The notes beneath the pieces were generated by a model. It was not told the origin of the DNA. It saw nothing but the letters and a program-made list of their open reading frames with translations, and searched no databases. A stretch of 64,000 nucleotides of DNA. It comes from a virus. The number at the start of each line of letters is the position of its first letter. The stretch's first letter is position 1. Positions 955 through 40,664 of this stretch are shown here, one piece after another. Position numbers and translations under genes: made by a program. The stretch spans positions 1-64,000 of the IMG/VR virus record IMGVR_UViG_3300037261_000082; one strand, given 5' to 3'.

Positions 955-1260
955 ATGTCATATCCGGAAAAAGGCGCTGGCTATTCCCACAAGCCCAAGT
1001 TCATTGAGCGGATGAAGCGGGCGGAAGGTGGTGCTGCGCCACAGCCAAGTGATTTATACGACCCAGAGCAATTAGAAAGCATTGCTAGTCAGGAAAAGCG
1101 TTTTAATCCGCCGTCTGCGCAGGATCAGCTAGCCGCTAAGCAAGTTGATCCTAACATTGAATTATTAAATACTCCTCGCTCGTTTGGCTCCAACCCACAC
1201 GGCTCTATTGACGCGCAAGGCAAAGTGCATGGTATGAAGCGTGGCGGCCACAAAAAGTAG
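955..1260 (+). CDS. small GG-motif protein, probable virion/internal protein
   Basis: RAEGG and MKRGG motifs; GAAGGA RBS. Confidence 0.7.
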   Translation: MSYPEKGAGYSHKPKFIERMKRAEGGAAPQPSDLYDPEQLESIASQEKRFNPPSAQDQLAAKQVDPNIELLNTPRSFGSNPHGSIDAQGKVHGMKRGGHKK

Positions 1261-1315
1261 TTAGAGAATTTACTCAGCTGCCACTCGGTGCAGCACAAAA
1301 CAGGAGACTGACCCG

Positions 1316-2340: not shown

Positions 2341-2360
2341 GCGTGGAGTATGTATAGATC

Positions 2361-3908: not shown

Positions 3909-3939
3909 TTAAGCGTTTTTGAGGAGGAGAATAATTCCG

Positions 3940-5061
3940 ATGGCTGACAAAAAAGATGAAGCAGTTGTGGAAGTTGCTGACGAGGGCGTTGTCACTGTGG
4001 ACGTTACTGATAATCCTGACCTTGCAGACGTGGGCAAGGAAGCGGCTAAAGAAGGCGAAGAGAAAGAGCCAGTCGTCAAACTGGCTGACGAAGCCAAGCC
4101 GGAAAAGAAATCCGTTCCAAGAGTTAAGCTAGCTGAGAAGGCTGCCGTTGACGAAGCTAAGGTCGCCCTAGACCAGGCGGTTAAGACAGCGGCTGATGAA
4201 CGTAAGGCCCGTGAAGCAGCTGAGGCTACAGCCCAGGCCGAGCGTAGGCGTGCTGATGCGGCCACGAGCCAGGTTACTGCCCGTGACCAGGAACTAGCGG
4301 CTAGGGCTGAGGCAGCTGATGCCCGCGAACTAACCATCCTGGATAACGGCATTGCGTCTGCTACGGCGTTGCTGACGTCCTTACAGGACGAGAGCACGCG
4401 TCTGATGGAAGCTGGCGAGTTTGCCAAGGTTACGGCAGTTCAAACTAAGCTGGCCCGTGCAGCATCGCAACTCGATAGGCTAGAGGCTGCCAAGGCGGAT
4501 TACGAATCAGGCGTGCGCACGGTGCCTACCACTGAGGGTCGTGTAGAGGCTGCAGTTGCAAGCCAACTCAATCCTCTAGATCAGTATTTGTCAGGCTTTG
4601 CCCCCAAGGCACAGACCTGGCTGCGCGCCCACCCTGAATGCATCCCAGCGTCCATAGGCGGCAACGCAGCTAAGAACGCCAAGATGATGGCGGGGCATTG
4701 GGCGGCACTTGGCGAAGGCTTGCAGGAGGGTTCTGACGACTATTACCGGGTCATTGAGGAACATGCTGGCTATCGTACGCCCGTGTCTAAGGCGGCTGAC
4801 GTTGTAGAGGCTGGTGAGGAAGAGGAAGCCCCTGCGCCTAAGAAGGCCAAGGTGCACCCCTCTGCCCCTATATCTCGTGAGGTGCCTGGCGCAGACGGCA
4901 AGGTTGCTCGTACGACTCGTTCGGTCACCTTGACCAAGGAGCAACAGGATGCCGCCAAGATGAGCTTCCCACAGTTGCCCCCGAACCAGGCCTTTGCCCA
5001 GTATGCACGCAATTTGCTGGAGCTAGAGGCAGAAGGTAAAATGGGAAGAATTACTCATTAA
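3940..5061 (+). CDS. putative capsid scaffolding protein
   Basis: Acidic N-terminus, long coiled coil, C-terminal VTLTKEQ...YARN; located between GroES and capsid genes. Confidence 0.75.
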   Translation: MADKKDEAVVEVADEGVVTVDVTDNPDLADVGKEAAKEGEEKEPVVKLADEAKPEKKSVPRVKLAEKAAVDEAKVALDQAVKTAADERKAREAAEATAQAERRRADAATSQVTARDQELAARAEAADARELTILDNGIASATALLTSLQDESTRLMEAGEFAKVTAVQTKLARAASQLDRLEAAKADYESGVRTVPTTEGRVEAAVASQLNPLDQYLSGFAPKAQTWLRAHPECIPASIGGNAAKNAKMMAGHWAALGEGLQEGSDDYYRVIEEHAGYRTPVSKAADVVEAGEEEEAPAPKKAKVHPSAPISREVPGADGKVARTTRSVTLTKEQQDAAKMSFPQLPPNQAFAQYARNLLELEAEGKMGRITH

Positions 5062-6343: not shown

Positions 6344-6979
6344 ATGGCTAACGTCCTTGCACCATTTGGCTTTGCTCAGGTTGGCACCACGGGCATGCCC
6401 CCAAACTTTGCGCGTGCTGGTAGTGGTTCCCCGTATAAGATCAAGGCTAGCTTTGTCACCCCCATCTATTATGGTGACGCGGTTCGCATGTGGATTAGTG
6501 GTGATGACAGTTCTGGCAACCCCGGTTATATTACGCCTTGGGTAGCTGCTGACGGTAGTTCACCCACTAAGATTCTCGTTGGCATTTTCCTTGGTTGTGA
6601 GTATTACTCATCCTCGCAGCGTCAAAACGTCAAGAGTCAGTTTTGGCCAGGTGGTGATGCTGCGGCCGATGGCATAGCCTACGTTTGTGACGACCCTGAT
6701 TCTGAGTGGATGGTGCAGGCCGGAGTCGCTGCTACGCCCTTCACACAAATCTATGTTGGCTCGACGGCTGATGTTGTGGTTTCCCCCACGGGCAGCACCA
6801 TCACAGGCATTTCTGGGATGACTCTTGATACACCCACGACTACGGTGTCCTTCCCATTCAAGGTGAGAAACGTAATCACGACCCCGCCGACCGCTAACGG
6901 TCGCGACCTGCTCACGGCGTACAACTACGTCACCGTTGCCTTCAACAACCAGATATACAAAGCACTCCTAGGGGTCTAA
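6344..6979 (+). CDS. capsid decoration/cement-like protein, paralog 1
   Basis: MANVLAPFGF...IYYGDAV...VGIFLGC...DDPD pattern upstream of the MCP. Confidence 0.75.
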   Translation: MANVLAPFGFAQVGTTGMPPNFARAGSGSPYKIKASFVTPIYYGDAVRMWISGDDSSGNPGYITPWVAADGSSPTKILVGIFLGCEYYSSSQRQNVKSQFWPGGDAAADGIAYVCDDPDSEWMVQAGVAATPFTQIYVGSTADVVVSPTGSTITGISGMTLDTPTTTVSFPFKVRNVITTPPTANGRDLLTAYNYVTVAFNNQIYKALLGV

Positions 6980-6983
6980 GCAC

Positions 6984-7601
6984 ATGACTGTAAACGTCCA
7001 AGCACCCTTCGGTTTTCTCCAGATTGGCACTGCCTCTGGGCCACCGAACTTTGCCGAGAATCATAATCCACCTTATCGGATTGCGTCGGGCTATGGCACC
7101 GCCATTTATTTTGGCGACGCCGTACGCATGAACGTTTCCGGCCCTACTGGCTATATTGAGCAGTGGGCTAATGGTGATGGTGGTACTGCTACTAAGATTC
7201 TAGTTGGCATCTTCGTTGGTTGCAGCTACTTCTCAACGGCACGAGGCTACAACGTCGAAAGTCGTTACTGGCCTGGTTCCGATGCTACTGGCGACGTTCG
7301 CGCTTATGTTGTGGACGACCCAAATAGTCAATGGAAGATACAGGCGGGCATTGGCTCAGCCATCACCCAGACCTCAATTGGTGCTTGTGCTGATATTGTA
7401 GCTACTCCGCTGGGCAGTACTGTGACGGGTCAGTCCGGCATGTGCCTTTCAACGCCAACCACAACTGTTACGCTTCCGTTCAAGGTGGTGAACGTCATCA
7501 CCTCTCCGCCAGGTGCGCCGGGCACGGATCTCACGGCAGCCTACAACAACGTCATCGTGGCGTTTAACAACCAGCAATATAAAGCCCTCCTAGGAGTCTA
7601 A
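6984..7601 (+). CDS. capsid decoration/cement-like protein, paralog 2
   Basis: Clear paralog of 6344-6979; both end AFNNQxYKALLGV. Confidence 0.75.
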   Translation: MTVNVQAPFGFLQIGTASGPPNFAENHNPPYRIASGYGTAIYFGDAVRMNVSGPTGYIEQWANGDGGTATKILVGIFVGCSYFSTARGYNVESRYWPGSDATGDVRAYVVDDPNSQWKIQAGIGSAITQTSIGACADIVATPLGSTVTGQSGMCLSTPTTTVTLPFKVVNVITSPPGAPGTDLTAAYNNVIVAFNNQQYKALLGV

Positions 7602-7604
7602 GCC

Positions 7605-8531
7605 ATGGCGATCAACGTCGCAGCCATCCGTGACCTTCTTCTGCCTGGCCTCCGGGGTGTCACGGGCGAATATAAGCAGTGGCCAGCTATCTGGCCAAAA
7701 CTCTTCGACCAGGGCAAGTCAGAAATGGCCCAGGAGCGCACCGCTAGTATGCGCTTCCTGCCACTGGCTCAACTGAAAACCGATGGTGGTCAGACCGCCT
7801 TCGACAACAACTCCGGTGAAGCCTTCGTCTATAACCAGTTGCATACTGGTATTGGCCTGGGCTATGGTATCACCCGTAATACGATTGCCGACAACCTGTA
7901 CAAGGCTCAGTTCCGGCCATCCAATCTTGGCCTGCAACGCAGCTTTGCCCAGACGAAGGAGATCTACGCGGCGGCAGTGTTCAACTCGGCTACCACTTAT
8001 GACACGACAGTGGGTGGTGATGGAGTTGCCCTGCTTAGCGCATCGCATCCCCTCCCGGCTGGTGGCTCTGGCCCGGCGACCTGGGCCAATACCCCCGGTA
8101 CGCAAGTGGACCTTAACGAGTCGTCTCTGCTTAACGGCATGATTAGCATCAAGACTGGCATGTACGACAATGCTGGGCTGCGCATGATGGCCACGGGCAA
8201 GACCCTCGTAATCCACCCGAACAACGAGCCTGTTGCGCTCCGGCTCCTGCGTGCTGAGTTGCGTCCGGGCACCGCGATGAACGACCCGAACGTGATCCCC
8301 ACCGTAGCGGGCGGCGTAACGGACTACGTCGAGGACGTGTTCTTTACCTCAGCCTTCCCCTGGTACATCAAGACCGACCAGCCCGGCATGCTCTATCTTG
8401 AACGTGAACCGTTTGAGATTGATATGCAGGTGGACTTCACCACGGACAACCTGTTGGTGAAGGCGTGGGAGAGGTACTCCTTCAATTATAACGATCCCAG
8501 GGCTTTATGGGGATCCTCACCGACCTCATAA
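7605..8531 (+). CDS. major capsid protein
   Basis: LLLPGLR N-terminus, GDGVAL...SHP, DFTTDNL...ERYSF...DPR..WGS; strong codon bias. Confidence 0.9.
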   Translation: MAINVAAIRDLLLPGLRGVTGEYKQWPAIWPKLFDQGKSEMAQERTASMRFLPLAQLKTDGGQTAFDNNSGEAFVYNQLHTGIGLGYGITRNTIADNLYKAQFRPSNLGLQRSFAQTKEIYAAAVFNSATTYDTTVGGDGVALLSASHPLPAGGSGPATWANTPGTQVDLNESSLLNGMISIKTGMYDNAGLRMMATGKTLVIHPNNEPVALRLLRAELRPGTAMNDPNVIPTVAGGVTDYVEDVFFTSAFPWYIKTDQPGMLYLEREPFEIDMQVDFTTDNLLVKAWERYSFNYNDPRALWGSSPTS

Positions 8532-8596: not shown

Positions 8597-9727
8597 TTGA
8601 TGGAACAAGAAGTTGCAAGTCCGAAAAAGAAGCAGTCGCCGACCAACGTTCGGTCCGCTGAAGTGTTGGCGATTGCTCACTCACGTGTTCTTGAGTTGTT
8701 TACTTACGCTCCCCAAAGTGGCAAACTTCTGTGGAAGATAAAAATTGCGCGTAAGGTTGTGCCCGGAACTGTAGCAGGACAGCAGAATTCTGACGGGTAC
8801 TGGTACGTTGGGTTTGACGGCAAACGGTTGCCCCTACACCATGTGATTTGGTTCTATCATTATGGTTCTTGGCCTACTGAGTACCTTGGCTTTAAGAATG
8901 GTAATTACGACGATACCCATGTAGAAAATTTGAAGTTATTAACAGCTTCAGATAAGCAGAAAATTGAAGCCCTTCAACACTTTGGTTTGAGCGCCGAACA
9001 GAAAGCTATTAAGTACAATCCTAAGCATAAGTACTGGCGTGTTCGGTTTAAGGGTGTGAAGCTTGGCAAGTTTTACACCTATGAGGCTGCGAAAGAGGTT
9101 TATGATAAAGCTCTTAGTGGGGAACTTGACTTAGCTCATCAAGCTGAAGTCAATTCTAAGATGGCGCTTTTGCGGTTGCGTACAAGCTGGCGCATGGTGC
9201 TTAAAGCTGGACCGCATGGTTGGAAATCTTTTGCACATTTTGTTGAGACGGTTAAGGACCGTCCCGGTAAGCTTACTAAGCTCCGTCCTAAGGATTTGAA
9301 TACTCTCATTGGGCCTAATAACTTTGAGTGGGAAACTTTAACTGTTGATGAAGCCAAGGCTCGCTACCAAAGTCAAAGTACGGAAGCTTACGAAGCTTCC
9401 CGTGTTAATTGGGTAAGCCGTAAGTTTGGTGTTTCTACTGAATGGTACGATGACACGCTTAAAGCACAAGGTGGTGTTTGCGCTATTTGTGCCAAACCAG
9501 AAACTGCTGTTCGGTTAGGAAAACTTCTTCCTCTTAGTGTAGATCATGATCACGTAACCGGGAAGGTTCGAGGCCTCCTTTGTACCTCTTGTAACATCGG
9601 AATTGGTGCTTTACAGGATGATCCTACTATTATGCGTACTGCTACTAATTATGTTGAACGCTGGCGTGCAGAACATGTAGCACCTTTGCCCGAAAATGTT
9701 GTTTCTCTTAAAGACCATAAAGCTTAG
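8597..9727 (+). CDS. free-standing homing endonuclease: degenerate HNH, AP2-like segment, endonuclease VII domain
   Basis: HHVIWFYHYG...ENL; C-terminal QGGVCAIC...VDHDH.TGKVRGLLC..CN; ATG probably 8600. Confidence 0.85.
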   Translation: MMEQEVASPKKKQSPTNVRSAEVLAIAHSRVLELFTYAPQSGKLLWKIKIARKVVPGTVAGQQNSDGYWYVGFDGKRLPLHHVIWFYHYGSWPTEYLGFKNGNYDDTHVENLKLLTASDKQKIEALQHFGLSAEQKAIKYNPKHKYWRVRFKGVKLGKFYTYEAAKEVYDKALSGELDLAHQAEVNSKMALLRLRTSWRMVLKAGPHGWKSFAHFVETVKDRPGKLTKLRPKDLNTLIGPNNFEWETLTVDEAKARYQSQSTEAYEASRVNWVSRKFGVSTEWYDDTLKAQGGVCAICAKPETAVRLGKLLPLSVDHDHVTGKVRGLLCTSCNIGIGALQDDPTIMRTATNYVERWRAEHVAPLPENVVSLKDHKA

Positions 9728-10846: not shown

Positions 10847-10908
10847 ACCTGATCGTAAGCAGGTAACCTTCTTACGACCGAGCCCACGGATCCGGGTCAC
10901 TACGAAGG
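10847..10908 (+). promoter_or_regulatory. H-type pseudoknot with an alternative RBS-sequestering hairpin
   Basis: S1 ACCTG/CAGGT, L1 A, S2 TCGTAAG/CTTACGA; alternative CCTTC/GAAGG and GACC/GGTC pairings. Confidence 0.55.
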
Positions 10909-10917
10909 AATTCTGTC

Positions 10918-11289
10918 ATGTCTCGTTCCCGTCATATGAAGCGCGCCAAGGGTGGTGCTACTGTTTACGCTGGTGAAGGTTCTAACGTGCTCAAGGAAGC
11001 CGAAGAGCGCAAGCGTGGTGGCAAGGTTCACGGCGAAGGCGAAAAAGGCAAAGAACGTGGCGATCGTCGTAAGCGTGGGGGCAAGGTTGAGCGCAAAGAA
11101 CACGAGCGCAAGCATGGCGGTAAAGTTGAGCATGAGAAGGAAGAGCACGAACGTAAGGCTGGCGGTGCTGTTTCCCCAGGCCGCAAGCGCGGCGGCGGTA
11201 TTGGGGCGAACTTGACCCCACTTAGCACGGCTGCCCGTATCAAGGAAGTCACCAAGGGTGAGTCTTCCGAGGACGAAGGCAAGCACTAG
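10918..11289 (+). CDS. highly charged GG-motif protein, probable internal/DNA-associated virion protein
   Basis: Six R(K/A)xGG motifs. Confidence 0.8.
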   Translation: MSRSRHMKRAKGGATVYAGEGSNVLKEAEERKRGGKVHGEGEKGKERGDRRKRGGKVERKEHERKHGGKVEHEKEEHERKAGGAVSPGRKRGGGIGANLTPLSTAARIKEVTKGESSEDEGKH

Positions 11290-12437: not shown

Positions 12438-13115
12438 ATGCCAACTTCCAATACTTTCTCCTTCAATCCTGCTATTGGAACTCTAACGCTCAATGCTTTT
12501 GCGCGTTGCGGTGTGCGACGTACTGAGCTTACCCCGCAGCACATGAGTGATGCATTTCTTGAGGCAAATTTTCTTCAAGGCGATTGGGCAGCGGATGGGA
12601 TCATCTGGTGGACTGTAGAGCGTGTAGATCAACCTTTGACGGCTGGTGCACCTACTTATGGGTTACCCACTAACACAATAACGATCTTAGATTTATATAT
12701 TACGGCAAATGGTCAAAACCGTTTGATTATGCCTTTCTCTCGTACGGACTATGCTAGTTTGGCTGAGCCATTACAGCAAGGGTTCCCAACTAGCTTTTGG
12801 TTTGACCGGGCACTGATACCTACTGTTACATTGTGGCCTGTGCCGGATAACAACACGACGTATTCAATGTCCTATTACGTTTATACCCAACCTGAAGATG
12901 CTTTGTTGCGGGCAGGCGGTCAGGCAGCTATTCCTTACTGGTGGTTAAATGCGTACGTGGCTGACCTATCCCATCGTCTTGCGCGGATTTATGCGCCTGC
13001 CCTAGAAGCTGCACGTAAAATGGATCGTGATGAAGCTTATCAACGGGCATGCAAACAAACTGAGCCGAGTCCACTTTTCGTAACGCCTGGACTTTCTGGC
13101 TATTTCAGAGCGTGA
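12438..13115 (+). CDS. head-tail adaptor / tail tubular protein A-like
   Basis: SRTDYA...G.PT.FWFDR...TLWPVPD; position after the capsid genes. Confidence 0.75.
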   Translation: MPTSNTFSFNPAIGTLTLNAFARCGVRRTELTPQHMSDAFLEANFLQGDWAADGIIWWTVERVDQPLTAGAPTYGLPTNTITILDLYITANGQNRLIMPFSRTDYASLAEPLQQGFPTSFWFDRALIPTVTLWPVPDNNTTYSMSYYVYTQPEDALLRAGGQAAIPYWWLNAYVADLSHRLARIYAPALEAARKMDRDEAYQRACKQTEPSPLFVTPGLSGYFRA

Positions 13116-29747: not shown

Positions 29748-32700
29748 ATGGGATCCAAGACACAAACTAGTTCTAGCAGTTCCGCGCCTAATCCGCAGGC
29801 GATGGACCTATACCAGAGTCTGCTTAAGCAGGCGCAAGGTGTGGCAGCAACTCCATACGATCCTTACGGGGGCCAGCTAGTCGCGCCGGTTAACCAGCAG
29901 CAAGGCACTGGTATTGCTAATATCAATCAGTACGCTGGTGCTGCCCAGCCTGCCATTCAGACGGCTGAAGGTATGGCACAGCAGGCTGCCTCGCCAATTA
30001 CGCAGGCGCAAATCCAAGGGTATATGTCGCCTTATACCCAGGATGTGGTTAATGCTACTCAGAACCAGTTTAATAATCAGAATCAGCAGCAACAGCAGGG
30101 TGTTGTTGGCAATGCCATATCTCAAGGTGCTTTGGGTGGTAACCGTGTAGGAGTAGCGCAAGCTGAATTGGCTAACCAGCAAAATCTAGCGCAGGCTCCG
30201 GTTATTGCTAACCTGGAGAATCAGGGCTACCAGACTGGGTTGAGTACTGCTTTATCACAGCAGCAAGCCCAAGCTGCTGGCGCTTATTCGTTAGGCAATT
30301 TGGGTGTGGCTGGGCAGAATGCTGGATTGACTGGTGCTAATGCACAAATTGGTGCTGGTTCGTTGCAACAGCAAACTCAGCAAGCTCAGTTAGCTGCCCA
30401 GTATCAGCAATTCCTTAACCAGCAGGCCTACCCCTTCCAGACCACACAGTGGCTGGCGGGTCTGGGTACTGGTGTTGGCTCGCAGATGGGTGGCACAAGC
30501 ACCACGACAGCCCCTGCGCCTAGTTTACTTGGGCAGATATTTGGTGGCGTGGCGGGTGGTGCTAGTATGTTAGGGGCTTCAGGTGCCTTCCCTGGGGCTG
30601 CTACAGCTACTACTGCTGCAACACCAGGATGGTTAGCTGGTTTAGGGTCATTGTTTGCTCGTGGGGGCAGTGTATCTAACCGCGCGCAAGGCGGTGGTAT
30701 TGCTAATCACGAAGTTGTTATACCGGAAACTCCACACACACTTATTGCTCAACAGCATCAGTTATTACAAGGCCACCGTCGCGCTCAATTGTTCCCGCAC
30801 GGAACGTCAGAACTACCGTTGCCTAACGGAATGGCTCGGGCCACAACTGAAGCTGGAGCAATTCATTATAATCCGCACCACATTGATGCTGAAACGGTGC
30901 ACCATCTTGCTTCTGGTGGTCGCTTAAACGAGTTGCTTGACCTTGGTCCTGTCACTAAGGACGAGGCTCTACGGCGTATTCATGAGGGTGAGCACCCTGT
31001 TGCTGTAGTGGAACGCAATGAACACGGACACGAAGTGCGCGCTGCCTTGGGTACGCACCTTACTGCAATGGATCAACTACATGCTATGCATAGAACCAAA
31101 TCACCTGGGCATACGCTTACCCTAGAGCACCCTGACCATGTAGTGGCTCGGCGTATACACGCTCACATGAGCGGTGGTGTGGCTAACCGTGATATGGGTG
31201 GTGGTGTTAATTACCAGACCTTCGGTGGTGGCTACGGCACACCAGTTATGCCTTATAGTGGAGGTAAAGGTTATATCCCATCTATGGGCATTACCCATGG
31301 TGATGGTGCGCCACGTCCACCGTCGCCTTCTGGGCAACAGCAGGGCGACTTAACTAGCCAGATGAAGAATATTGGGTCGTTAGCTGGTGCAATTCATTCA
31401 GGGATGAATCAGCCGGGAGGTTTGGGTGATGATGGCATGGGTAGCACCAACGACCCAAGTTGGACTGGTGGTGATCCTCTTGCTGGGGGTGCTGATATTG
31501 GTACGGGTGGTATTGGTGCAGCGAAGCGTGGCGGTGGTATTTCTAACTATGCTGACGGAGGTACGCCTAGCTTTGACGACCGTTTTAGTGGTGTTGATCC
31601 TGGTGCTCTCCCACCCACAATTGATGGTGTGCCAACACAGCTGCTATTAGGTAAGGGTGGTTTTGATGCGCCAGCTGCTACGCCTTCCTTTAACGATAGG
31701 TTTAATGGCGAACCGGCTCCAGCTTCAGGAGTAGTGCCTCTTAAGGAAAATAGTATCCCAACTCCACACATAACTCCTTCGTCAGGCTTTACTGAGGATG
31801 CTTCAACCCCTGCTCCTGCATCAGAAGGAGTAGTCCCTACTGAGGCTTCGTTCCACCCAAGTGATACTGGTGGACCTGCTCCTGCAATTGCTCCTGAAGC
31901 TTCTACACCCCCTGCTCCAGGAGTTGCTTCTGCTTCAACTTCGGCACCACGTGGTATTCGCAACAATAATCCTGGTAATATTGAGGATGGTCCCTTCGCA
32001 CGTTCGCAGCCTGGTTATGCAGGTAGTGATGGGCGCTTTGCCAAGTTCCAAACTCCGGAAGCGGGAGCAAATGCTAGCGGTAATCTACTTGGTTCCTATG
32101 GCGCAAAGGGAATCAACACGATAAGTGGTATCATTAATCGCTGGGCACCAGCTGCTGATAATAACAATACGCAAGCTTATATTGCGGCAGTGTCTAAAGC
32201 GACTGGTCTGGCCCCCAATCAGCCTTTGAATATGCAGGATCCTGCTCTACGTATGAAGATTGCTGGTGCAATTCATCAGTACGAAAATGGGACAGGTGGG
32301 CCTTCAGGTGATACGCTTACTGCTCGTAATTATAATCGTGCCTCCGGAGTAGGAGCACCAGAAGTTGCAGGGGGTGACCCTACTGACCTACCTGCTCAGT
32401 CTAAGCAGCCTCCCGCTGCCGGAGTAGCGCCTAATATTGATTGGGGGGCAAATTCTAAACTCTGGCCTTCGCTCATGGCGGCAGGCTTCGGCATGATGTC
32501 TTCACGTTCGCCCTTCCCAGGTGTGGCAATTGGTCAAGGTGCCGAGCAAGGCATGCAGACTTACCAAACACTTAAACAACAGGAGCAGCAGCAAGCGTTT
32601 AGTAAGCAAAGACTTGATCTAGAAGCAGCAACGCTTACAGAAACTACACGTAAGAATAAAGCTACTGAGCAGTATCAGCAACAGCAACTTGAAGCAAAAA

Positions 32701-33869
32701 TGATAGAACCAAAACCGTTCTATAATCCTAAGACCGGGCAAATGGATTATACTGTCAGGACCCCAGAAGGTGATGTGGTATCCTTAGGCACAGGGGAGAT
32801 TATAGTTGGGCCGCATCGGGGCCAGGTGATTCCAACCCCCGCCCCATCAGGTGCAGCACCCAGTGGGCAATTAGGCCAACCTTCTCAACAGCAGTCTGGT
32901 TTTCAACAGGCGGCTTTTAACCCTGATGGGATTTGGCGGGTTAATTCGCAACAATCTGAGGGACCAACTGATTATAGCAATGGGAGTAAACTTCCCTATG
33001 TTGAACATGGTATGACCGTTCCTGACCCTGCGCCTGTGGCTGGGTATTCACCAGATACAGTAAAAACTGCTGCTGAGTGGTATCTAAAGACTGGAAAACA
33101 GCCATTGATTTCTAGAGGAGCCAGCCCCGTTGCTCAAATGCAGAATGCTTATGCTAGGGCTGTTATGAACTACGGTAATGCTCTTGCGGCGTCGCGTGGT
33201 GTCTCGCGTGAAGAATTAACCGATATCTGGCAAACTGCTCCAAGGGTTGGTCAATTTATTCTTGGCCAACCGGGCCAGCAAATTGTTTCGCTTGGTACTG
33301 CGATGCGGCACTTAGAAACTCTTAAGGATTATGAAGCCGCTTGGCAGCAGGCAAAGGCAGGCGACACTCGGCCACTCAATGCTATCCAAGCCTATATTAA
33401 GACTCAGTGGGGTAGTGACGCAGCCACCAACCTTAATACTGTAGCCCACATACTGGGGCCTGAAATTATTAAGGCCATTGGCGTGGCAGGTGCTGGTACG
33501 GATAAAGACCGTGCTGATGCGGTGGCTCAGTTTACTTCTAGTGGCAGTGATTCGCAAGTCAATGGTGCAATTAAAGCCACTGAACTACTACTTCGTGGTC
33601 AACTAATAGGTAAAGAAAATCAGGCGCGAGCAGCTGGGCTTAGTGAGGGCAGGCTGCAGAAGATGATTGGGGAAAAGGAATACAAGACATTGCAGAACCT
33701 TGATCAGCACTACTCAGGGGCTAAGACTACTGCTCCTGGTACTCCTGCCGCTCCGGCTGCACCAGCTGCTACTGCGTTACCCCCAGGAGTTCCACCTGGT
33801 TCTGTTTCAGGCATGAAGGGTGGTGCCCCAGTTTGGCGTACCCCTGATGGACAGTTTATTCCAAAATAA
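29748..33869 (+). CDS. large internal/ejection protein: Gln-rich N-region, His-rich module, lysozyme-like RNNNPGN module
   Basis: YMSPYTQDV; RGIRNNNPGNI...RWAP...NNT..Y...ENG at about 31945-32290; at least 7 GG motifs. Confidence 0.8.
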   Translation: MGSKTQTSSSSSAPNPQAMDLYQSLLKQAQGVAATPYDPYGGQLVAPVNQQQGTGIANINQYAGAAQPAIQTAEGMAQQAASPITQAQIQGYMSPYTQDVVNATQNQFNNQNQQQQQGVVGNAISQGALGGNRVGVAQAELANQQNLAQAPVIANLENQGYQTGLSTALSQQQAQAAGAYSLGNLGVAGQNAGLTGANAQIGAGSLQQQTQQAQLAAQYQQFLNQQAYPFQTTQWLAGLGTGVGSQMGGTSTTTAPAPSLLGQIFGGVAGGASMLGASGAFPGAATATTAATPGWLAGLGSLFARGGSVSNRAQGGGIANHEVVIPETPHTLIAQQHQLLQGHRRAQLFPHGTSELPLPNGMARATTEAGAIHYNPHHIDAETVHHLASGGRLNELLDLGPVTKDEALRRIHEGEHPVAVVERNEHGHEVRAALGTHLTAMDQLHAMHRTKSPGHTLTLEHPDHVVARRIHAHMSGGVANRDMGGGVNYQTFGGGYGTPVMPYSGGKGYIPSMGITHGDGAPRPPSPSGQQQGDLTSQMKNIGSLAGAIHSGMNQPGGLGDDGMGSTNDPSWTGGDPLAGGADIGTGGIGAAKRGGGISNYADGGTPSFDDRFSGVDPGALPPTIDGVPTQLLLGKGGFDAPAATPSFNDRFNGEPAPASGVVPLKENSIPTPHITPSSGFTEDASTPAPASEGVVPTEASFHPSDTGGPAPAIAPEASTPPAPGVASASTSAPRGIRNNNPGNIEDGPFARSQPGYAGSDGRFAKFQTPEAGANASGNLLGSYGAKGINTISGIINRWAPAADNNNTQAYIAAVSKATGLAPNQPLNMQDPALRMKIAGAIHQYENGTGGPSGDTLTARNYNRASGVGAPEVAGGDPTDLPAQSKQPPAAGVAPNIDWGANSKLWPSLMAAGFGMMSSRSPFPGVAIGQGAEQGMQTYQTLKQQEQQQAFSKQRLDLEAATLTETTRKNKATEQYQQQQLEAKMIEPKPFYNPKTGQMDYTVRTPEGDVVSLGTGEIIVGPHRGQVIPTPAPSGAAPSGQLGQPSQQQSGFQQAAFNPDGIWRVNSQQSEGPTDYSNGSKLPYVEHGMTVPDPAPVAGYSPDTVKTAAEWYLKTGKQPLISRGASPVAQMQNAYARAVMNYGNALAASRGVSREELTDIWQTAPRVGQFILGQPGQQIVSLGTAMRHLETLKDYEAAWQQAKAGDTRPLNAIQAYIKTQWGSDAATNLNTVAHILGPEIIKAIGVAGAGTDKDRADAVAQFTSSGSDSQVNGAIKATELLLRGQLIGKENQARAAGLSEGRLQKMIGEKEYKTLQNLDQHYSGAKTTAPGTPAAPAAPAATALPPGVPPGSVSGMKGGAPVWRTPDGQFIPK

Positions 33870-33886
33870 CCTCTAGTTTGGCAAAA
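33867..33886 (+). repeat. left copy of an imperfect 20-bp direct repeat flanking the accessory insert
   Basis: TAACCTCTAGTTTGGCAAAA; 17/20 identical to 36486-36505. Confidence 0.6.
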
Positions 33887-33940
33887 GTATGTATAGCTAG
33901 TGAAAGCACGGTTCTCACTAACGTAATAAGGAAAATTAAA

Positions 33941-34186
33941 ATGACCCATAACATACTTGAAAGCAAAGAACGCTTTATTGCTTGGGCTGGTCCGTTAGTT
34001 TTTCAAGCCGTTAAGCATTGTAGAGAAGCTGATGATTTGCACGCACATGAATTCTGTGATGGAATAGCTGGTCTTATGTATCAGTCTTTGACTGATACTA
34101 GATCAACCAATGAAATATCTGAGTCCAATAAGAAATTGTCGTCAGAGATTTCAGATAAGTTACGGACAGATAATAAATTACAATAG
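33941..34186 (+). CDS. hypothetical protein
   Basis: AAGGA RBS before ATG 33941. Confidence 0.5.
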   Translation: MTHNILESKERFIAWAGPLVFQAVKHCREADDLHAHEFCDGIAGLMYQSLTDTRSTNEISESNKKLSSEISDKLRTDNKLQ

Positions 34187-34212
34187 TTGGTAGTTTCATC
34201 AAAGTAGGGAGA

Positions 34213-34563
34213 GTGTTAATGAATAGGCGCAGGGTTTTTTCTTGGATTGCAACTCTTCCATTTATGGGAGTGATCACGTCTGCTAGTATGGCAAAGCCAG
34301 CCACTAAAATGCACCCGCGTTTCCCTGAATTTCTTAATGCAACTCGTGATGAATTAATGCCTGGTCTAAGAAGTTTTGAAACTTCTGAAATAGAACTCGA
34401 TATCCATTGTAATTATGCTTACGACACTTTGTTTGTTAAGGGCTATAACCTCAAAACACACCGCCTTAACAATTTTGTTATTACTAGAGAACAAATAATC
34501 TCTGGTGACTATAAGACTCGTTTTGCGCCTCAGTTACACATACTTATTTCTACATTAACTTAA
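34213..34563 (+). CDS. Tat-signal-like protein with a capsid-N-terminus-like segment
   Basis: NRRRVF plus hydrophobic stretch plus SMA; ATRDELMPGLR. Confidence 0.65.
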   Translation: MLMNRRRVFSWIATLPFMGVITSASMAKPATKMHPRFPEFLNATRDELMPGLRSFETSEIELDIHCNYAYDTLFVKGYNLKTHRLNNFVITREQIISGDYKTRFAPQLHILISTLT

Positions 34564-34575
34564 CAGGAGGAACTT

Positions 34576-34887
34576 ATGGCTGAAGAAACTATTGCGGAAA
34601 TGGATAAGCGAATTCAGGCTGAACTTAATAAGCAGTACAGTCTTGAAGAGATTAAACAACTAGAAAATGAACTTGATGATCTGGATAAGTTGTATTACGA
34701 AAAAGTGTACCGTAGAGTTACGGACATTTCTACTATCTTTTTGAGACAGAAATTAGTTACTCCGGAGTATAAAACGGAATTAGCGGACTTGGGCTTTCCT
34801 CTTGGAAAGGTATGGTTTGGCTTAAGTGGGCTTAAACGAATGAGTGCTACAATCCCTACTGCCACTGTTTATATTGAGGAGCGTTGA
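34576..34887 (+). CDS. hypothetical protein
   Basis: AGGAGG RBS. Confidence 0.65.
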   Translation: MAEETIAEMDKRIQAELNKQYSLEEIKQLENELDDLDKLYYEKVYRRVTDISTIFLRQKLVTPEYKTELADLGFPLGKVWFGLSGLKRMSATIPTATVYIEER

Positions 34888-34888
34888 C

Positions 34889-35623
34889 ATGAAACGAAGA
34901 AATTTGCTTGTAGCAGGACTTGCTTCACTAATTAGTTTACCTTTTACTAAGAAAGGCTTTGCGGAGGATACTAGCTTTGCTAATTTTCCCGGCTTTTCTT
35001 ACTTAAAGAAAAAAGTAGTAACTCCTCTTAAGGGCGACGTTGATTTTAACACGCTGCAATCCTGGATTAAGGAATGGCCAATTACTCAACTACCTTCTGA
35101 GATGGCTCAAGTTTATGATGCCCCATCAGGCAAATGCTTATTACATCAGACACTTTCGATAGGTGCAAGGTTCAAATTAACCGCTGAGGAATTGGAATTC
35201 TGTTGGAGCGGAAAAGCTCCTCTTCAGATTTTAGATTACTGCAAAGCGCATAATATCGACCACACCATCAAGGGACATACCCTTAATGCTGTGCCTCCGT
35301 CAGCGTGGTTGAGCAGTTGTGTGAATTACAAAGCTGCAGAATTGCTTATTTGTGAAGTAGTAGCTAAAGCTTTGTACTTCAAGGCGCTTGGGCAAACTAC
35401 CGTTTATTGGCGTGAACCCCCAGAAATGGACACTGCATTTGATTTTAACTTTGTACCAGATGCTGCTGGTCCAGACGTTGACTTTGCTACTGACCAAAAA
35501 GGATACTCTCATTTGCGTGGCGGGTCAGTTAGGTTCTACACCCGATTATCGTTTGATGACCCAGATTTCTACATAGATGTACCACGTTTTAGGGAAGGTG
35601 GTAAGGTACGTTGGATTGCTTAA
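34889..35623 (+). CDS. Tat-signal-like protein
   Basis: MKRRNLLVAGLASLISLPF...GFA; GAGGAG RBS. Confidence 0.65.
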   Translation: MKRRNLLVAGLASLISLPFTKKGFAEDTSFANFPGFSYLKKKVVTPLKGDVDFNTLQSWIKEWPITQLPSEMAQVYDAPSGKCLLHQTLSIGARFKLTAEELEFCWSGKAPLQILDYCKAHNIDHTIKGHTLNAVPPSAWLSSCVNYKAAELLICEVVAKALYFKALGQTTVYWREPPEMDTAFDFNFVPDAAGPDVDFATDQKGYSHLRGGSVRFYTRLSFDDPDFYIDVPRFREGGKVRWIA

Positions 35624-35636
35624 AAGGGAGGCTTGC

Positions 35637-36206
35637 TTGAACAACATCTCTCGGCGTTCAATCCTTTGTGGCCTAATTGCGGCTCCTGTTGTAATTTGGG
35701 CCAGCCATTTAATGCCTTTACGAGGCGTTAAGTTACGTCAAAGGTTTGGCTGGAATATGAAACTTGAGGCAGACGGCTCTACGGCACTCGTAAAAAGTGG
35801 GCGGTACTCACTTGATGATTGGCTTCAAGTCCAAAACCCAACTGATTGGGGAAAGAAACACAAAATGTGGACTCTTGATGGGGAATTATATTCTACGATT
35901 GAGGATCCTACCCTAGAAAGAGTTTCAGTTCAGATTATAGATGATAAAGCAAAGCTTCAAGAACGCCTTGAACATTGGAACCATTTCCAAGCATTTCAGA
36001 AGGAGGAGGGGGTTAAGGTTGAGGCAAGTTTATACGCGCCTGGTGTTGTTTTTGAGGGGGATGTGATTGCTCCTCCACCTAAACCTTGTAGTTGGCCTGT
36101 ATTTCAGTTTTGGGAAAAGGATTTTGTGGGGTTCCGTCATATGGACGGGGAAGCCCTCAATAATGCTCAGAAATTGGTGGCTCAGGAAATGGCATATAAT
36201 GGGTAG
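35637..36206 (+). CDS. Tat-signal-like protein
   Basis: TTG start after GGGAGG; SRRSILCGLIAAPVV. Confidence 0.6.
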   Translation: MNNISRRSILCGLIAAPVVIWASHLMPLRGVKLRQRFGWNMKLEADGSTALVKSGRYSLDDWLQVQNPTDWGKKHKMWTLDGELYSTIEDPTLERVSVQIIDDKAKLQERLEHWNHFQAFQKEEGVKVEASLYAPGVVFEGDVIAPPPKPCSWPVFQFWEKDFVGFRHMDGEALNNAQKLVAQEMAYNG

Positions 36207-36236
36207 GATGAATGGGGTTGCCATACTCGAAAGAAC

Positions 36237-36455
36237 TTAAAGACTACGCAGAACCTGATGCGGTCCCTGAATCTTTACCAAAATGCGATACCATTTATTT
36301 CCTTTAGTGTGAGCTTCCAAATACAAACCAAGAGAACTGGCCTTCATAAGGGCTGCACGGCTGTCAGCACCTACACCGTCGGAAGCATAAACATGATCAC
36401 CCTCAAAACATAAACGTATATTAGACGCAACAGACTTCATTTTTACTTTTGCCAT
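36237..36455 (-). CDS. hypothetical protein, opposite strand within the late block
   Basis: AAGGAG RBS on the minus strand. Confidence 0.6.
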   Translation of the reverse strand: MAKVKMKSVASNIRLCFEGDHVYASDGVGADSRAALMKASSLGLYLEAHTKGNKWYRILVKIQGPHQVLRSL

Positions 36456-36509: not shown

Positions 36510-39500
36510 ATGGCTGATATCAACGACTTTGTACCTGACACTACTCCGGCTCCTGTTCCGGTGCCACAGCACGACGACTTCGTGCCTGATGTGGCACACG
36601 ATGATTTTGTGCCTGATGCTCCTCATGGGCGTGCCCCCTTGGTATCTGCAGTAGGAGCTTCTGAAGCAGCACCAGCTTCCGGTGAAAGCAACATGCTTTC
36701 TGACGTGCCTCATGAAGTGTATGAAGCAGGTAAATCTGCTTTGACTGACATTAATGCTGGGCTGAACCCTTGGTCGGAGGAAAACAAAGCTGCTGAAGCA
36801 AAGAAAGCTAACGCACCTACTTTTTTGAGTGGTCTATCTGCGCAAGCTAGCGACTTGGGACGAGTTGGTAAGGGGCTTATGGGAATTCCGGCTCTTGCTG
36901 TGGCTCCAATTACTGGTGCTGCTCGGTCGTTAATTGGGCACCCGTTAGCTACAGCAGAACACACTGCTGGTACTATAATTGCTCCGGAAATTGCAGCGAA
37001 AGACAATCCGGATGAAATGTACCGTACTGCAAAGGAGGGCGTTGATACGGCTATGATGGGGCTACGCCCGGCTGGTGCGCCTGTGCTTCGTGCTCCCCCG
37101 TCAGGACTTCCTCGTGGCCCCTATGAAATTCCTCCTACTAAGCCTGCTCTGGCTTGGGAAGCTCCTACAAAACCACAGCCTCCTACTCCACCGGCCTTAA
37201 CACCACAGAATCGTCCTTTTGGTGTTACCCTTAGTCAAGGTGAAGTTGAGGGTGATTTAGCTAAGCGCATGGCTGAGCAAAATGCCATTCGTAGTGGCGA
37301 CCCTCATGCTAGGGCTTTCGCTGATCAACGTGCTGCGGAATTAGCACGGTCTCGTGAGGACTTAACAGCTCAATTAGATCCAACCCAGCAACTTGTTGAG
37401 TCCCCTCATGCTGCTGCAGAAAAGATTATTGGGGAACTGCAAGCCCAAAGCCACGCTGAACAGGCTGCCACTCAGCAGCGTGAAAGTTTGCTTCAGCAGT
37501 ACCATGAAGGCTACCGAAATAATCTAAGCCCTACCCATACCCAGCTAGCGTCTAATCCCATGGAAGCAGCTGATATTGTTTCTGGTTCGGTTGCGGCTTC
37601 GGCTGAACGTGCACAAGCTGCCGCAGACGCAGCCTACACTGCCTTCCGTGAGTTGCCCGGACAGTTCCATCCTGCGTCTTTTAACAAGACAGCTGACGTA
37701 ATTAAGAGCAATCTTGCACGGGGCGACGACCCTACATTTATCAATCCTCAGAATACTCCCAATGCTAATACAGCATTAGGTGATCTTACAGATATTCTGG
37801 GAGATATTAGTCAGGTTCGTGATCCGGAGACGGGACAGATCATTCCTCGCCCGCCAGTTACGCCACAGCTGGTTGAGACAGCGCGTAAGCGCCTTAATAC
37901 TTCGCTCAGTAATGCATTGAGTTCTGCTCGTTCCACTGGGAACTGGGCCGACGTTAGAGCTATGCGTCAGGTAATTGACGAGTTTGATGGCCAGGTTCTA
38001 AAGAAACTAGACACTACCTTTACCGGGGGTGACCCTCGTGACGTTTCGTCTACCTTAAAATGGGCACGTGGGCAGTATGCTGAGTACCGCAAGACATTTA
38101 CTCCGCAAGGTGCTGGCGATGTAGTTGGCCCTGCTATTCAGAAGATTGTTGGGCGTCAGGAAGGACAGGCTGCTGCTCCCGAAGAAATTAAGTCTATGCT
38201 CTACGGAAATGGGCAGCTGCCGCCTAAGATAGCACGGCGGCTGGTTGATATGTTTGGGGTCAACTCGCCTGAGATAGGAGCCATTAAGCAGGGCCTTTTC
38301 TCCTCTATTACTGAGCGCCCGCCAGGAGCAACAGCCTGGGGGCCAGCACAGGTAGCGGATCGTATTGATGCTGCGGCAAATAGCACCCTTACGCGGGCTT
38401 ACCTTAACCCAACTGAGATTAAGGATCTGCAGCGGTACGGGCGGGCCTTGCGTCAGCACGACGCAGTTACTAACGCACCCCAGGACAGTGTTGGGAGTAT
38501 TATCTCAAAGCTGACGGGTACGGATACTGCTGAACCTGCTAGCCTGCAAGCTGCTGTTAACCGGCTATTCAAGAATACTCTCACCGGAGAGTCCAATTCT
38601 GTTGCCCTTATTAATGAGTTGAAAACACGACTAAGCCCTGAAGCCTTTACTACATTTAAGCAGGGCTTATTTCAGTACGCAGTAAGTCCCGGTGAAAACC
38701 TGGAAGCTTGGGGACCGCAGAAGATTGCCACCAATCTCAATAAACTATTGAATACTACAGGGCGTCAAGGTGCAGCTGCTGTCTATTCACCCCAGGAGCG
38801 GGCTACGCTGCAGGCTTATGCCAACTTGATGGGCAAGATAACGATGCCTCCTGGCACATACTTCCCGTCTGCACCAGGTATTAATGCTATGATGTCTACA
38901 GTGGCAAACCGCATTGGGCAAGTCATAGGTGCGCTTGTGGGGCGTTCATTGACTCCTGGGCTGCCGCTCATTGGTGAGTTTGCCGGTATCACCATTGGCG
39001 GAAAGCTGGAAAGAGCCTTAGAGAAATTGCATGGTGGTGTTAGTAAGCAATTGCCTCTCGTAACTAATGAGATGCAGAAATGGCAACGTGCTCAGGCTCG
39101 TGCTGCTAAGAATCCCAATTGGGCAACTAAGCAAGGTGCATTACTTGCTACAACGAGTCTGCAGAATTCTCTACGCCCTCTCGGAATTGACTTCAGTAGG
39201 TTGCAATTGCCAGGCCCAGGCACAGCCCAGGATCAGCAACCTCAGCAGCGGGCTGATGGTGGTGCAACAGACAATGCACCTACTCCCCCAGCAGGTCCTC
39301 GCCCATTTGGTTGGCCTCCTCATTTGCCTTGGGACCAACCGTCTCAGAAAGGCTCAGCACAAGCACCAATAGATAAGAGAGCTGATGGTGGTGCAACAGA
39401 CGATAATCCTGACGTAGGGAGTAATTACGTCACACGTCGCACTGCCCCTTTTCCGGAAAAGCCTGAGGGCTACGAATATATTGAAGCCAAAGGGGCCGGG

Positions 39501-40664
39501 GCTGATACTCCAGGCCCTATTGCTACACCCTTATCCAGCGGGCTAGAGACGCTTGCAGGGGCGGTAGGTGCGCCTGAGCCTAGCCCAACCCCCTCTACCC
39601 TCGAAGAAGCGCCTGCAGGAGGCCCTGCAGACTGGTCTACAGCGGGGTTTGGCCCGTCTGTGGATACTAGTGAAGGGTTAGGCAGTAAGGCGTTGAATAG
39701 ACTTACTGGCGCTGGTGGTGAAGAACGCCTTCAGACTTGGCCTGAGAAAATGGTCCGTTCTGGCACAACCCTTGCAGGTGACGTGCTGTCTGGGCAAGAA
39801 CCTGACTTGACTGGATTGCGTAGAGAGGATTTTACGGACGAGCCACGTCCGGGTGGTTTTACGGTTGCTGCCGAACCTCAGGATGCCCTTATTCAACGTA
39901 CCCAGGACATGGCTGCGTTGGCGGGTGGTGCAGGAATTCCTAATGCTGAGGAAGGTGCGTTGGGAATGGCTGGAGGAAAATTAACCCAACCTCCTATGGA
40001 GCAGGCCCTTAGCCGGGGCATGCCATTATTCTCGGACACGGCTAAGCCAGGGGCGGCGTTGAGTGGGTTAGAGAATAAACTTAAGAAAGTTTCTGATGCA
40101 CCAATTCAGGGGGAGTACCAATTAAACAATGATCCTGATTTAAGGTTTATTGCTGACCATGGTAAAAATTGGAAAGCTGGTGAATTAGCTCCTGGCAACT
40201 ATTTAGGTAAAGAGGCTGAGTGTCACTGGAATGTTGCTCGTTTATTTCATGATGGTAAAATTGATCAAGTAGTAGTTGGTTACGCAGAAAATGCTGATGG
40301 GTGGCACCAGCATACTTGGGGATTAAAGGCTGGGAAAGTTGTGGAGACTACACGTTCTAACACTGAGAATAAAAATTGGTACGGGGCGCCATTAAGTAAT
40401 GCGCAGTCAACACAATTTTCCAATTATGTGTTAAAGCCTAAAAATAGCCCTGGAAAAGGAAATGTTCGTACAACTCAAGGGTCACATCGTATCTTACAAA
40501 ATGCTGGTATTGTTGGCACGCCATTGAGTGCTAATAAAACTCGTTCCAATCAAAACCATATTCCAAGGCCAATAGCCCAGCAGCCACACCCCGGTCAACC
40601 AGCCCAGGAGCAAAACCGTGCGCATGGTGGGCGGGTTAATCCGGCCAATATCAAAAAGTTTTAG
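36510..40664 (+). CDS. large internal/ejection polyvalent-type protein with a C-terminal Cys-His (transglutaminase/papain-like) module
   Basis: DFVPD x3 N-terminus, long helical core, RADGG x2, ECHWN...GY...W.QHTW...VETT, RAHGG. Confidence 0.78.
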   Translation: MADINDFVPDTTPAPVPVPQHDDFVPDVAHDDFVPDAPHGRAPLVSAVGASEAAPASGESNMLSDVPHEVYEAGKSALTDINAGLNPWSEENKAAEAKKANAPTFLSGLSAQASDLGRVGKGLMGIPALAVAPITGAARSLIGHPLATAEHTAGTIIAPEIAAKDNPDEMYRTAKEGVDTAMMGLRPAGAPVLRAPPSGLPRGPYEIPPTKPALAWEAPTKPQPPTPPALTPQNRPFGVTLSQGEVEGDLAKRMAEQNAIRSGDPHARAFADQRAAELARSREDLTAQLDPTQQLVESPHAAAEKIIGELQAQSHAEQAATQQRESLLQQYHEGYRNNLSPTHTQLASNPMEAADIVSGSVAASAERAQAAADAAYTAFRELPGQFHPASFNKTADVIKSNLARGDDPTFINPQNTPNANTALGDLTDILGDISQVRDPETGQIIPRPPVTPQLVETARKRLNTSLSNALSSARSTGNWADVRAMRQVIDEFDGQVLKKLDTTFTGGDPRDVSSTLKWARGQYAEYRKTFTPQGAGDVVGPAIQKIVGRQEGQAAAPEEIKSMLYGNGQLPPKIARRLVDMFGVNSPEIGAIKQGLFSSITERPPGATAWGPAQVADRIDAAANSTLTRAYLNPTEIKDLQRYGRALRQHDAVTNAPQDSVGSIISKLTGTDTAEPASLQAAVNRLFKNTLTGESNSVALINELKTRLSPEAFTTFKQGLFQYAVSPGENLEAWGPQKIATNLNKLLNTTGRQGAAAVYSPQERATLQAYANLMGKITMPPGTYFPSAPGINAMMSTVANRIGQVIGALVGRSLTPGLPLIGEFAGITIGGKLERALEKLHGGVSKQLPLVTNEMQKWQRAQARAAKNPNWATKQGALLATTSLQNSLRPLGIDFSRLQLPGPGTAQDQQPQQRADGGATDNAPTPPAGPRPFGWPPHLPWDQPSQKGSAQAPIDKRADGGATDDNPDVGSNYVTRRTAPFPEKPEGYEYIEAKGAGADTPGPIATPLSSGLETLAGAVGAPEPSPTPSTLEEAPAGGPADWSTAGFGPSVDTSEGLGSKALNRLTGAGGEERLQTWPEKMVRSGTTLAGDVLSGQEPDLTGLRREDFTDEPRPGGFTVAAEPQDALIQRTQDMAALAGGAGIPNAEEGALGMAGGKLTQPPMEQALSRGMPLFSDTAKPGAALSGLENKLKKVSDAPIQGEYQLNNDPDLRFIADHGKNWKAGELAPGNYLGKEAECHWNVARLFHDGKIDQVVVGYAENADGWHQHTWGLKAGKVVETTRSNTENKNWYGAPLSNAQSTQFSNYVLKPKNSPGKGNVRTTQGSHRILQNAGIVGTPLSANKTRSNQNHIPRPIAQQPHPGQPAQEQNRAHGGRVNPANIKKF
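39252..39401 (+). repeat. exact 21-bp direct repeat encoding ADGGATD
   Basis: GCTGATGGTGGTGCAACAGAC at 39252-39272 and 39381-39401. Confidence 0.9.

Follow-up and report, generated by a model that had tools for sequence, protein, structure and literature searches.

The locus considered here raises the question of why six proteins encoded in the virion module of a single phage carry the same short peptide ending in a Gly-Gly pair, and what that peptide might do. The window analyzed comprises the first 64 kb (64,000 nucleotides) of the single-contig IMG/VR record IMGVR_UViG_3300037261_000082, which is 100,177 bp long, has direct terminal repeats and is rated 100% complete; it is the genome of an uncultured 100-kb short-tailed phage. 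A sequence-only reading of the window had listed about 27 such pentapeptides and had suggested that they mark cargo for loading into the head, for cleavage into separately injected effectors, or for both. All 27 are present in six + strand open reading frames (ORFs), named here by their start positions: two in 955, five in 1316, six in 10918, four in 27952, seven in 29748 and three in 36510. The pattern originally given, with R, F, Y, M or L followed usually by A, K or R and then x-G-G, accommodates 24 of them and fails for HMSGG, RDMGG and AKRGG. The analysis below shows that the signal is genuine, that the six proteins share it and that it is confined to proteins of the virion module; the element is the one also found in the C-terminal regions of tape measures (PRAEGG in T5 pb2; FATGG and YATGG in lambda gpH). 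As both of these proteins are cut in that region during assembly, a joint for processing or hand-over is its most likely role.

Enrichment, consensus and position of the motif

Genome-wide counts covered all 100,177 bp, with 151 ORF products. Compared with a composition-matched background, the strict form of the motif, R-[AK]-x-G-G, stands far above the shuffles: it occurs 18 times, against 1.9 +/- 1.3 expected from within-protein shuffling (maximum 8 in 2000 shuffles), and the looser form [RFYMLH][AKR]xGG occurs 35 times against 11 +/- 3.2. The six named proteins account for 17 of the 18 strict copies; the only other one is an RAFGG in a sugar dehydrogenase (15209-16030), and none is found in the 64-100 kb part of the genome. 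When shuffling was confined to windows of 15 or 30 residues, which preserve local Gly/Arg richness, the 17 copies in the six proteins, some of which are tandem duplicates inside one protein, compared with 0.5 +/- 0.7 expected (maximum 5). An exact 21-bp duplication noticed earlier in the 36510 gene is indeed there (GCTGATGGTGGTGCAACAGAC at 39252-39272 and 39381-39401). At the remaining sites the DNA itself is not repeated; in the 10918 gene, for example, the four RK(R/H)GGKV copies are only 67-83% identical in DNA and differ in their Gly codons.

A scan of viral contigs with the nozzle protein recovered 76 related loci. In these, as in the present genome, the motif is absent from capsid, scaffold and replication proteins, as had been claimed, and also from nozzle and tail proteins. 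The strict form is found in none of the 67 nozzle proteins (45,271 amino acids), 58 tail proteins and 11 capsid proteins that served as control groups, while 38 orthologues of the 27952 protein contain 53 strict motifs (5.0 per 1000 residues), and those of the 1316 and 10918 proteins (two each) reach densities of 12.8 and 15.9 per 1000. Around the Gly-Gly pairs of the motif-bearing groups, F, R and Y are favored at position -3 (3.7-, 2.8- and 2.3-fold), Ala occupies position -2 in 30% of cases, and Val is enriched threefold two residues past the pair, with no similar preferences around Gly-Gly in the control groups. The consensus is [F/R/Y/M/K]-A(K)-x-G-G-x-V/I. These preferences at -3, -2 and +2 are more than a plain flexible hinge would need. 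Furthermore, the Gly-Gly pairs of conserved motif sites use all four Gly codons, which, together with the invariance of the pair, indicates that selection acts on the peptide.

The proposal that the motif lies in linkers bordering discrete modules is borne out by three kinds of evidence, namely the ends of homology blocks, the disorder predicted by AlphaFold2 (AF2) for the motif segments of the 27952 protein, and inserts that have motifs on their flanks. Only six and seven motifs, respectively, lie within 25 residues of an N- or C-terminus, against 14 expected for each; this internal placement, with no enrichment at the termini, rules out a terminal tag. A GE-x-V hairpin (G-E-x-V-(V/I)-x-P, about 10-25 residues on) follows the motif in the case of FASGG of 27952 and RAQGG of 29748, and across the clade it follows 11% of the motifs against a background of 7%. 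With so low a co-occurrence, the idea that the motif merely flanks the hairpin was rejected, and it stands as an independent element. A hydrophobic, Gly/Ala-rich, membrane-type stretch precedes the first joint of 29748 and its orthologues (...GLGSLF-ARGG), and not most of the other copies.

Modules and joints in the six proteins

The 29748 gene (29748-33869, + strand) codes for an ejection-type protein of 1373 amino acids. Its N-terminal domain (29748-30650) ends in a Gly-zipper-like hydrophobic stretch, beyond which lie FARGG (30654-30668) and RAQGG (30681-30695, then HEVVIPE), followed by LASGG (30906-30920), HMSGG (31164-31178), RDMGG (31188-31202), AKRGG (31521-31535), YADGG (31548-31562) and a muramidase-like domain (31932-32297). 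Across the six motif proteins, Pfam and PHROG matches were obtained only in the ejection-protein and endolysin parts of this one: the PHROG matches are to a DNA ejection protein (residues 1-286) and an endolysin/transglycosylase (residues 726-866), and the PDB matches are to the endolysin 7q47 and Gp29 (9vvp). In BLAST, orthologue coverage is about 31 up to residues 280-300, immediately ahead of FARGG and RAQGG, and falls there to about 5, the downstream figure being a lower bound as some loci end at the 10-kb flank. A further block, residues 461-640, is bounded by HMSGG/RDMGG on one side and AKRGG/YADGG on the other.

Peptidase_S74 (PF13884) is a self-cleaving intramolecular chaperone of tail fibres and endosialidases. 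A new finding of this analysis is that the domain adjoins the motif in relatives of this protein: in 11 of 29 distinct 29748 orthologues it lies between the hydrophobic end of the N-terminal domain and the first motif pair, directly upstream of the pair at the same joint. These domains score 28-88 bits in Pfam (cut-off 22) and have the Ser/Lys dyad in the form S-D-x-R-x-K, and all 12 copies have a motif 66-82 residues downstream. Peptidase_S74 is a folded self-cleaving domain as opposed to a short motif, and the counts show it to be an addition upstream of the motif, not an alternative to it. Its presence at the joint makes the joint a predicted cleavage or processing point in those relatives, and supports the view that the giant proteins may be precursors with the joint as their processing point. 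In the present phage, Peptidase_S74 was not found in the genome. One orthologue (locus L063, 3179-7048, + strand) has two Peptidase_S74 domains, at residues 232 and 466, each of which is followed by a Gly-Gly motif.

The second giant protein, 36510 (36510-40664, + strand; 1384 amino acids), is an internal protein with a core, spanning approximately residues 60-905, that is common to five or six relatives; it gave no Pfam or PHROG match. The core stops at the RADGG at residue 914 (39249-39263), and all that lies beyond is lineage-specific. This region contains the second RADGG (39378-39392), which belongs to the 21-bp duplicate, and an RAHGG (40617-40631) 10 residues from the C-terminus. It also includes a Cys/His domain (40077-40544, + strand) with motifs on both flanks and the invariant signatures E-C-H-W-N and G-W-H-Q-H-T-W-G...V-V-E-T-T, the Cys of which is the only cysteine across all six motif proteins. 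The domain is conserved in two metagenomic homologues (P0001 and P0002), one of them preceded by Q-R-G-G-R-V-V, and in the Atlas it recovers unnamed clusters only (YunG-like at 0.85). The AF2 model has a helix-then-hairpin layout and is unreliable (pLDDT, the predicted local distance difference test, 42; shallow alignment of three sequences); the domain is possibly a papain- or transglutaminase-like enzyme. As it is lineage-specific and flanked by motifs, it looks more like cargo than like the processing protease. The N-terminus of the 36510 protein has a second short repeated peptide, (N/D)-D-F-V-P-D, which occurs three times within 37 residues (36510-36640, + strand).

The 27952 gene (27952-28908, + strand; 318 amino acids) lies directly 3' of the nozzle gene. 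Its product begins with a DUF6496-like helix ending in RAFGG (28096-28110), which is followed by a Pro/Met-rich linker, LKRGG (28327-28341), RAFGG (28351-28365) and a two-repeat hairpin-helix domain (28429-28905), with FASGG (28669-28683) in the loop between the repeats. The family is very large: among 1.84 billion representatives searched at E<=1e-3, it comprises 4,701 clusters (50% identity). Both G52 G53 and G243 G244 are invariant in an alignment of 31 sequences (A1), 10 of which match DUF6496 in Pfam; among 151 representatives sharing <=50% identity, G243 and G244 are 99% conserved, and E264, H291 and D295 100%. The hairpin-helix domain ends in L-P-G-P-A-K-D, and G-R-T-D, Y, N, G-G-E, H and D are invariant across the family; given the invariant E264, H291 and D295, it may have a catalytic or metal-binding role. 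In the AF2 model (mean pLDDT 65) the repeats, residues 177-213 and 255-311, exceed 90, and the motif segments fall below 50. Family members of up to 1395 amino acids contain inserts with motifs on both sides. No PHROG corresponds to the family, Pfam has nothing equivalent to the hairpin-helix domain, alignments A1 and A3 found no PDB sequence match, and the domain fold gave no Foldseek match at E<=0.001 and a best VIA-align Z of 4.0, which is uninformative. An Atlas lead to crAss cargo protein 1 (0.86) was rejected, as it had no Pfam support in any of the 31 family members.

The remaining three are small basic proteins, none of which has a Pfam or PHROG match. The 955 gene (955-1260, + strand) encodes 101 amino acids with an isoelectric point (pI) of 9.3, and contains RAEGG (1018-1032) and MKRGG (1234-1248), the latter three residues from the C-terminus; no homologue was found in the fetched loci. 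The 1316 gene (1316-2134, + strand) encodes 272 amino acids rich in Pro, Met and Gly (pI 10.5), with YRKGG (1556-1570), RASGG (1592-1606) and three copies of RARGG (1661-1675, 1922-1936 and 2009-2023). The 315 homologues that make up its family are all unnamed and average 4.8 motifs each, and at four of the five sites the Gly-Gly is invariant or nearly so (32-120 homologues); homology to the 27952 family was rejected, there being no detectable relation (hhalign probability 1%). The Lys/Glu/His-rich 10918 protein (10918-11289, + strand; 123 amino acids, pI 10.1) has six motifs: RAKGG (10942-10956), RKRGG (11008-11022, 11068-11082 and 11182-11196), RKHGG (11107-11121) and RKAGG (11152-11166), four of which run on as GG-K-V-(H/E). 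A longer minus-strand ORF (10900-11286) overlaps it; the + frame was preferred as the coding one, since homologues of its product in two related loci, L032 and L025, retain the motif arrays.

Known systems and the possible role of the motif

The tape measure of T5, pb2, has a single R-A-x-G-G, PR(1127)AEGG, followed by GEHGTEVVTP. The RAEGG lies 3' of a hydrophobic stretch and 19 residues before a G-x-E-V-V-x-P hairpin, an arrangement matching FASGG...AGGEVVIPPE and RAQGG...HEVVIPE of the present phage; the difference is that T5 has one copy, in a tail-tube protein, where the short-tailed phage has 27 spread over six proteins. At 37-72% identity, T5-like phages of Klebsiella and Vibrio retain R-A-x-(G/S)-G together with the hairpin, and those of Vibrio still hold R-A-x-(G/S)-G at 37-39% identity. 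In the maturation of pb2 to pb2* and pb2C, the cut was mapped "after R1127", i.e. between R and AEGG (Linares et al. 2023, PMC10038345). In lambda, the FATGG and YATGG that the sequence-only reading placed near GEFV are present in gpH, in the Gly-rich C-terminal region where it is cut (PMC12617516); they flank GEFVF right after a Gly-rich hydrophobic stretch (FATGG in the region of residues 736-740), with one such module per protein. The last 153 residues of gpH match no Pfam family. Conversion of gpH to gpH* and gpHC removes about 14 kDa from this Gly-rich region (PMC12617516).

Among podophages, the P22 ejection protein gp7 is cut by the host oligopeptidase A (OpdA) to give a new N-terminus KGGKG (Conlin et al. 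1992, as cited in PMC8402733). The example shows that trimming of a podophage ejection protein beside a Gly-Gly, here one residue before the pair, can be the work of a host enzyme and not a phage one. It differs in having another register without Ala and a cut 20 residues from the N-terminus. P22 gp7 also has a Gly-zipper-like end (...LGSLF), as at the end of the 29748 N-terminal domain (LGSLF-ARGG); homology between the two is undetectable (BLASTP E 0.3; hhalign probability 0.2%). The polyvalent proteins are likewise giant, multi-modular and delivered with the DNA, with a proposed processing into units; in that case embedded zincin-like peptidase domains are invoked and no linker motif is mentioned (Iyer et al. 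2017, PMC5512222). Likewise, the motif is not described in the ejection-protein review, the polyvalent-protein survey or the lambda and T5 structure papers that we consulted, and a literature search on the pentapeptide strings returned only primer and noise matches. The mode of cutting of the lambda and T5 tape measures, and the enzyme responsible, are questions of about 50 years' standing (PMC12617516). The motif bears on these, and on the way in which giant ejection proteins are divided into working parts.

The motif proteins of this phage, the two giants included, are probably ejected with the DNA. Of the specific roles considered, the one that we prefer, as a plausible if tentative proposal, is that limited proteolysis might take place at the module joints of tail-extruded proteins, with the motif as its recognition site. 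In such a scheme the motif would mark the flexible stretches where modules meet in proteins that leave through the tail on infection, and cleavage would occur immediately before A-x-G-G, not after Gly-Gly, so that the bulky residue becomes the new C-terminus, in line with the report on T5. The catalyst would not be a head protease of the classical phage kind; it could be a host peptidase, comparable to OpdA acting on P22 gp7, or some other activity. The N-terminal membrane-type, wall-cutting and lineage-specific cargo modules of the two giant proteins would thereby be released, and the small basic proteins would also be trimmed or fragmented. In favor of this scheme are the enrichment of the motif and its confinement to the six virion-module proteins, the residue preferences around Gly-Gly, the invariant pairs encoded by all four Gly codons, the predicted disorder of the motif segments and their place at the borders of homology blocks, the cuts reported for T5 pb2, lambda gpH and P22 gp7, and the Peptidase_S74 domains at the first joint in relatives.

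The search for an enzyme in the phage itself was largely negative. In six-frame translations of the complete genome, Peptidase_S77, Peptidase_S78 and CLP_protease gave no match at E<=1, and no clan-CE or head-maturation protease was detected by Pfam or PHROG in the about 75 proteins scanned; the head module has no prohead protease and instead contains a scaffold-like gene (3919-5061). Family scans turned up no match to a C39 peptidase or ABC exporter, and the motifs, being internal and repeated, are not the N-terminal leader of 15-30 residues typical of double-glycine bacteriocins. Nor do such internal motifs correspond to an N-terminal head-protease targeting peptide of the type represented by the T4 capsid targeting sequence (CTS)/gp21 or phiKZ gp175. 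The only peptidase-like gene (52442-53815, - strand) combines a DUF2201_N domain, with an intact HESEH, and a VWA domain, and was rejected as the processing enzyme because it is missing from five complete motif-carrying relatives. It adjoins a gene for a MoxR-like AAA ATPase in the early/replication block (52442-54928, - strand).

Several observations weigh against limited proteolysis at the motif. No cleavage is on record for any protein of the phage or its clade, and no protease co-varies with the motif, the DUF2201_N gene included. FASGG of 27952 lies between two halves of a domain that AF2 folds as a single unit, so that a cut there would split the domain. Cuts at the motifs 3-10 residues from the C-terminus of 955 and 36510, or in the 10918 arrays, spaced by 13-22 residues, would yield tiny peptides with no obvious use. 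The S74 domains accompany the motif and do not replace it, and hence point, in those relatives, to processing at the joint and not to a cut at the motif itself. As for the known systems, the T5 site is disputed, since earlier matrix-assisted laser desorption/ionization (MALDI) data and N-terminal sequencing gave V1148 +/- 1, and R1127 is a tryptic site (PMC11937520); as V1148 lies in the hairpin of the same module, both proposals nevertheless place the cut inside the module. In lambda gpH the cut site and the protease are not known (PMC12617516), and the cut in P22, as given in PMC8402733, is in a different register, between E and KGG.

It is possible, though we consider it rather less probable than proteolysis, that the motif is not cut and serves in docking or threading, as a short box through which the unfolded ejected proteins bind a common partner and are guided and put in order. 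That partner might be the hairpin-helix module, the portal or tail channel, or some conserved host component of the periplasm or membrane, in the manner of the Tol and Ton boxes of colicins, and the arrays in the small basic proteins would then provide multivalent binding. The specific residue preferences and the invariance of the motif are consistent with this, as are its position inside the two-repeat domain of the 27952 family and the copies very close to C-termini and in dense arrays, which make little sense as cut sites. Moreover, the motif often precedes a β-strand segment (RARGG...THVNVIV, RAQGG...HEVVIPE, FASGG...AGGEVVIPPE), and the motif region of lambda gpH (residues ~690-817) is unresolved in electron cryomicroscopy (cryo-EM), which is compatible with transient binding (PMC12617516). 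Set against this are the facts that no partner is known, that the hairpin pattern follows only about 11% of the motifs against a background of 7%, and that the T5 data put the cut in or beside the motif.

A broader conjecture, which strikes us as unlikely, is that tape measures, podophage ejection proteins and head cargo across tailed phages all pass through one undescribed step of processing or hand-over, for which the motif is the shared recognition element. One possibility within it is that the reading or cutting of the motif falls to the widespread hairpin-helix domain found in the 27952 family; another is that the motif docks unfolded proteins successively into the exit channel. If true, it would explain the cutting of T5 pb2 and lambda gpH.

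There is little to recommend the notion that the motif is an evolutionary seam only, i.e. the remnant of a linker cassette copied during recombinational insertion or swapping of modules, with no role beyond flexibility. The inserts with motifs on both flanks, the exact 21-bp duplicate in 36510 and the homology blocks that stop at motifs would all fit such a history. On the other hand, Gly-Gly is conserved across families of 4,700 clusters and 315 members with all four Gly codons in use, the preferences at -3, -2 and +2 are common to unrelated proteins of podophages and siphophages alike, and the DNA copies within 10918 have only 67-83% identity.

Least probable of all is the original suggestion, in which the motif would be a tag for loading into the capsid, a site cleaved behind Gly-Gly by an adenain-like, African swine fever virus (ASFV)-like or head-maturation protease, or both. 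As with adenain and ASFV pS273R, several virion-internal precursors, small basic proteins among them, share a Gly-Gly consensus, three of the motif proteins are encoded within the head gene block, the rest being probable internal proteins, and the modelled helix-then-hairpin topology of the C-terminal Cys/His domain of 36510 might resemble papain-like enzymes; however, the tape measures of T5 and lambda, which belong to the tail tube and are not head cargo, also carry the motif, the motif is internal and not enriched at termini, the Cys/His domain is itself cargo-like, and proteases of the S77, S78, ClpP, clan-CE and head-maturation types were not detected in the searches above. The register is also different, adenain cutting after the second Gly of (M/I/L)-x-G-G, whereas here the bulky residue lies one position further out, at -3 from the first Gly, with Ala between at -2; and the one mapped cut within the motif, that of T5, is reported before Ala (PMC10038345), a placement itself disputed (PMC11937520).

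Whichever role applies, the seven-residue motif, with its conserved Gly-Gly and the S74 domain beside it in relatives, offers a precise mutational target in laboratory phages, and it can serve as an annotation marker for ejected or cargo proteins and for module borders in uncultured phages.

Genomic setting of the motif genes

The structural block is on the + strand, and its gene order follows the layout of short-tailed phages. It includes the coiled-coil scaffold-like gene (3919-5061, + strand), an HK97-type capsid gene (7605-8531, + strand), an SU10-type adaptor (12438-13115, + strand) and the gene for the nozzle or "stabilization" protein of 751 amino acids (25309-27564, + strand), with tail and fibre genes in the same block and the two giant genes at 29748 and 36510. 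In genome coordinates, the large terminase is at 86087-87811 and the portal at 96369-98924. The DNA of the nozzle gene gave no match when compared with phages, and a search with its protein recovered distant relatives only. Among the cultivable relatives of the clade are, for example, HTVC023P-type pelagiphages and phages of Roseobacter and Ochrobactrum.

Directly 5' of the capsid gene are two neighboring paralogous genes (6344-7601, + strand; 211 and 205 amino acids, phrog_37556), which possibly code for decoration or auxiliary head proteins. Three free-standing homing-endonuclease genes of HNH/endonuclease VII and GIY/NUMOD types are found within the virion block (8597-9727, 18890-19588 and 40665-41537, + strand), directly 3' of the capsid gene, the sugar cluster and the 36510 gene, respectively. 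Between the two giant genes lies an island of lower GC content (33878-36455, ~45%) with five small ORFs, three of which (34213, 34844 and 35577) start with twin-arginine-like signal peptides; from these features, the island looks like an inserted set of periplasm-targeted proteins.

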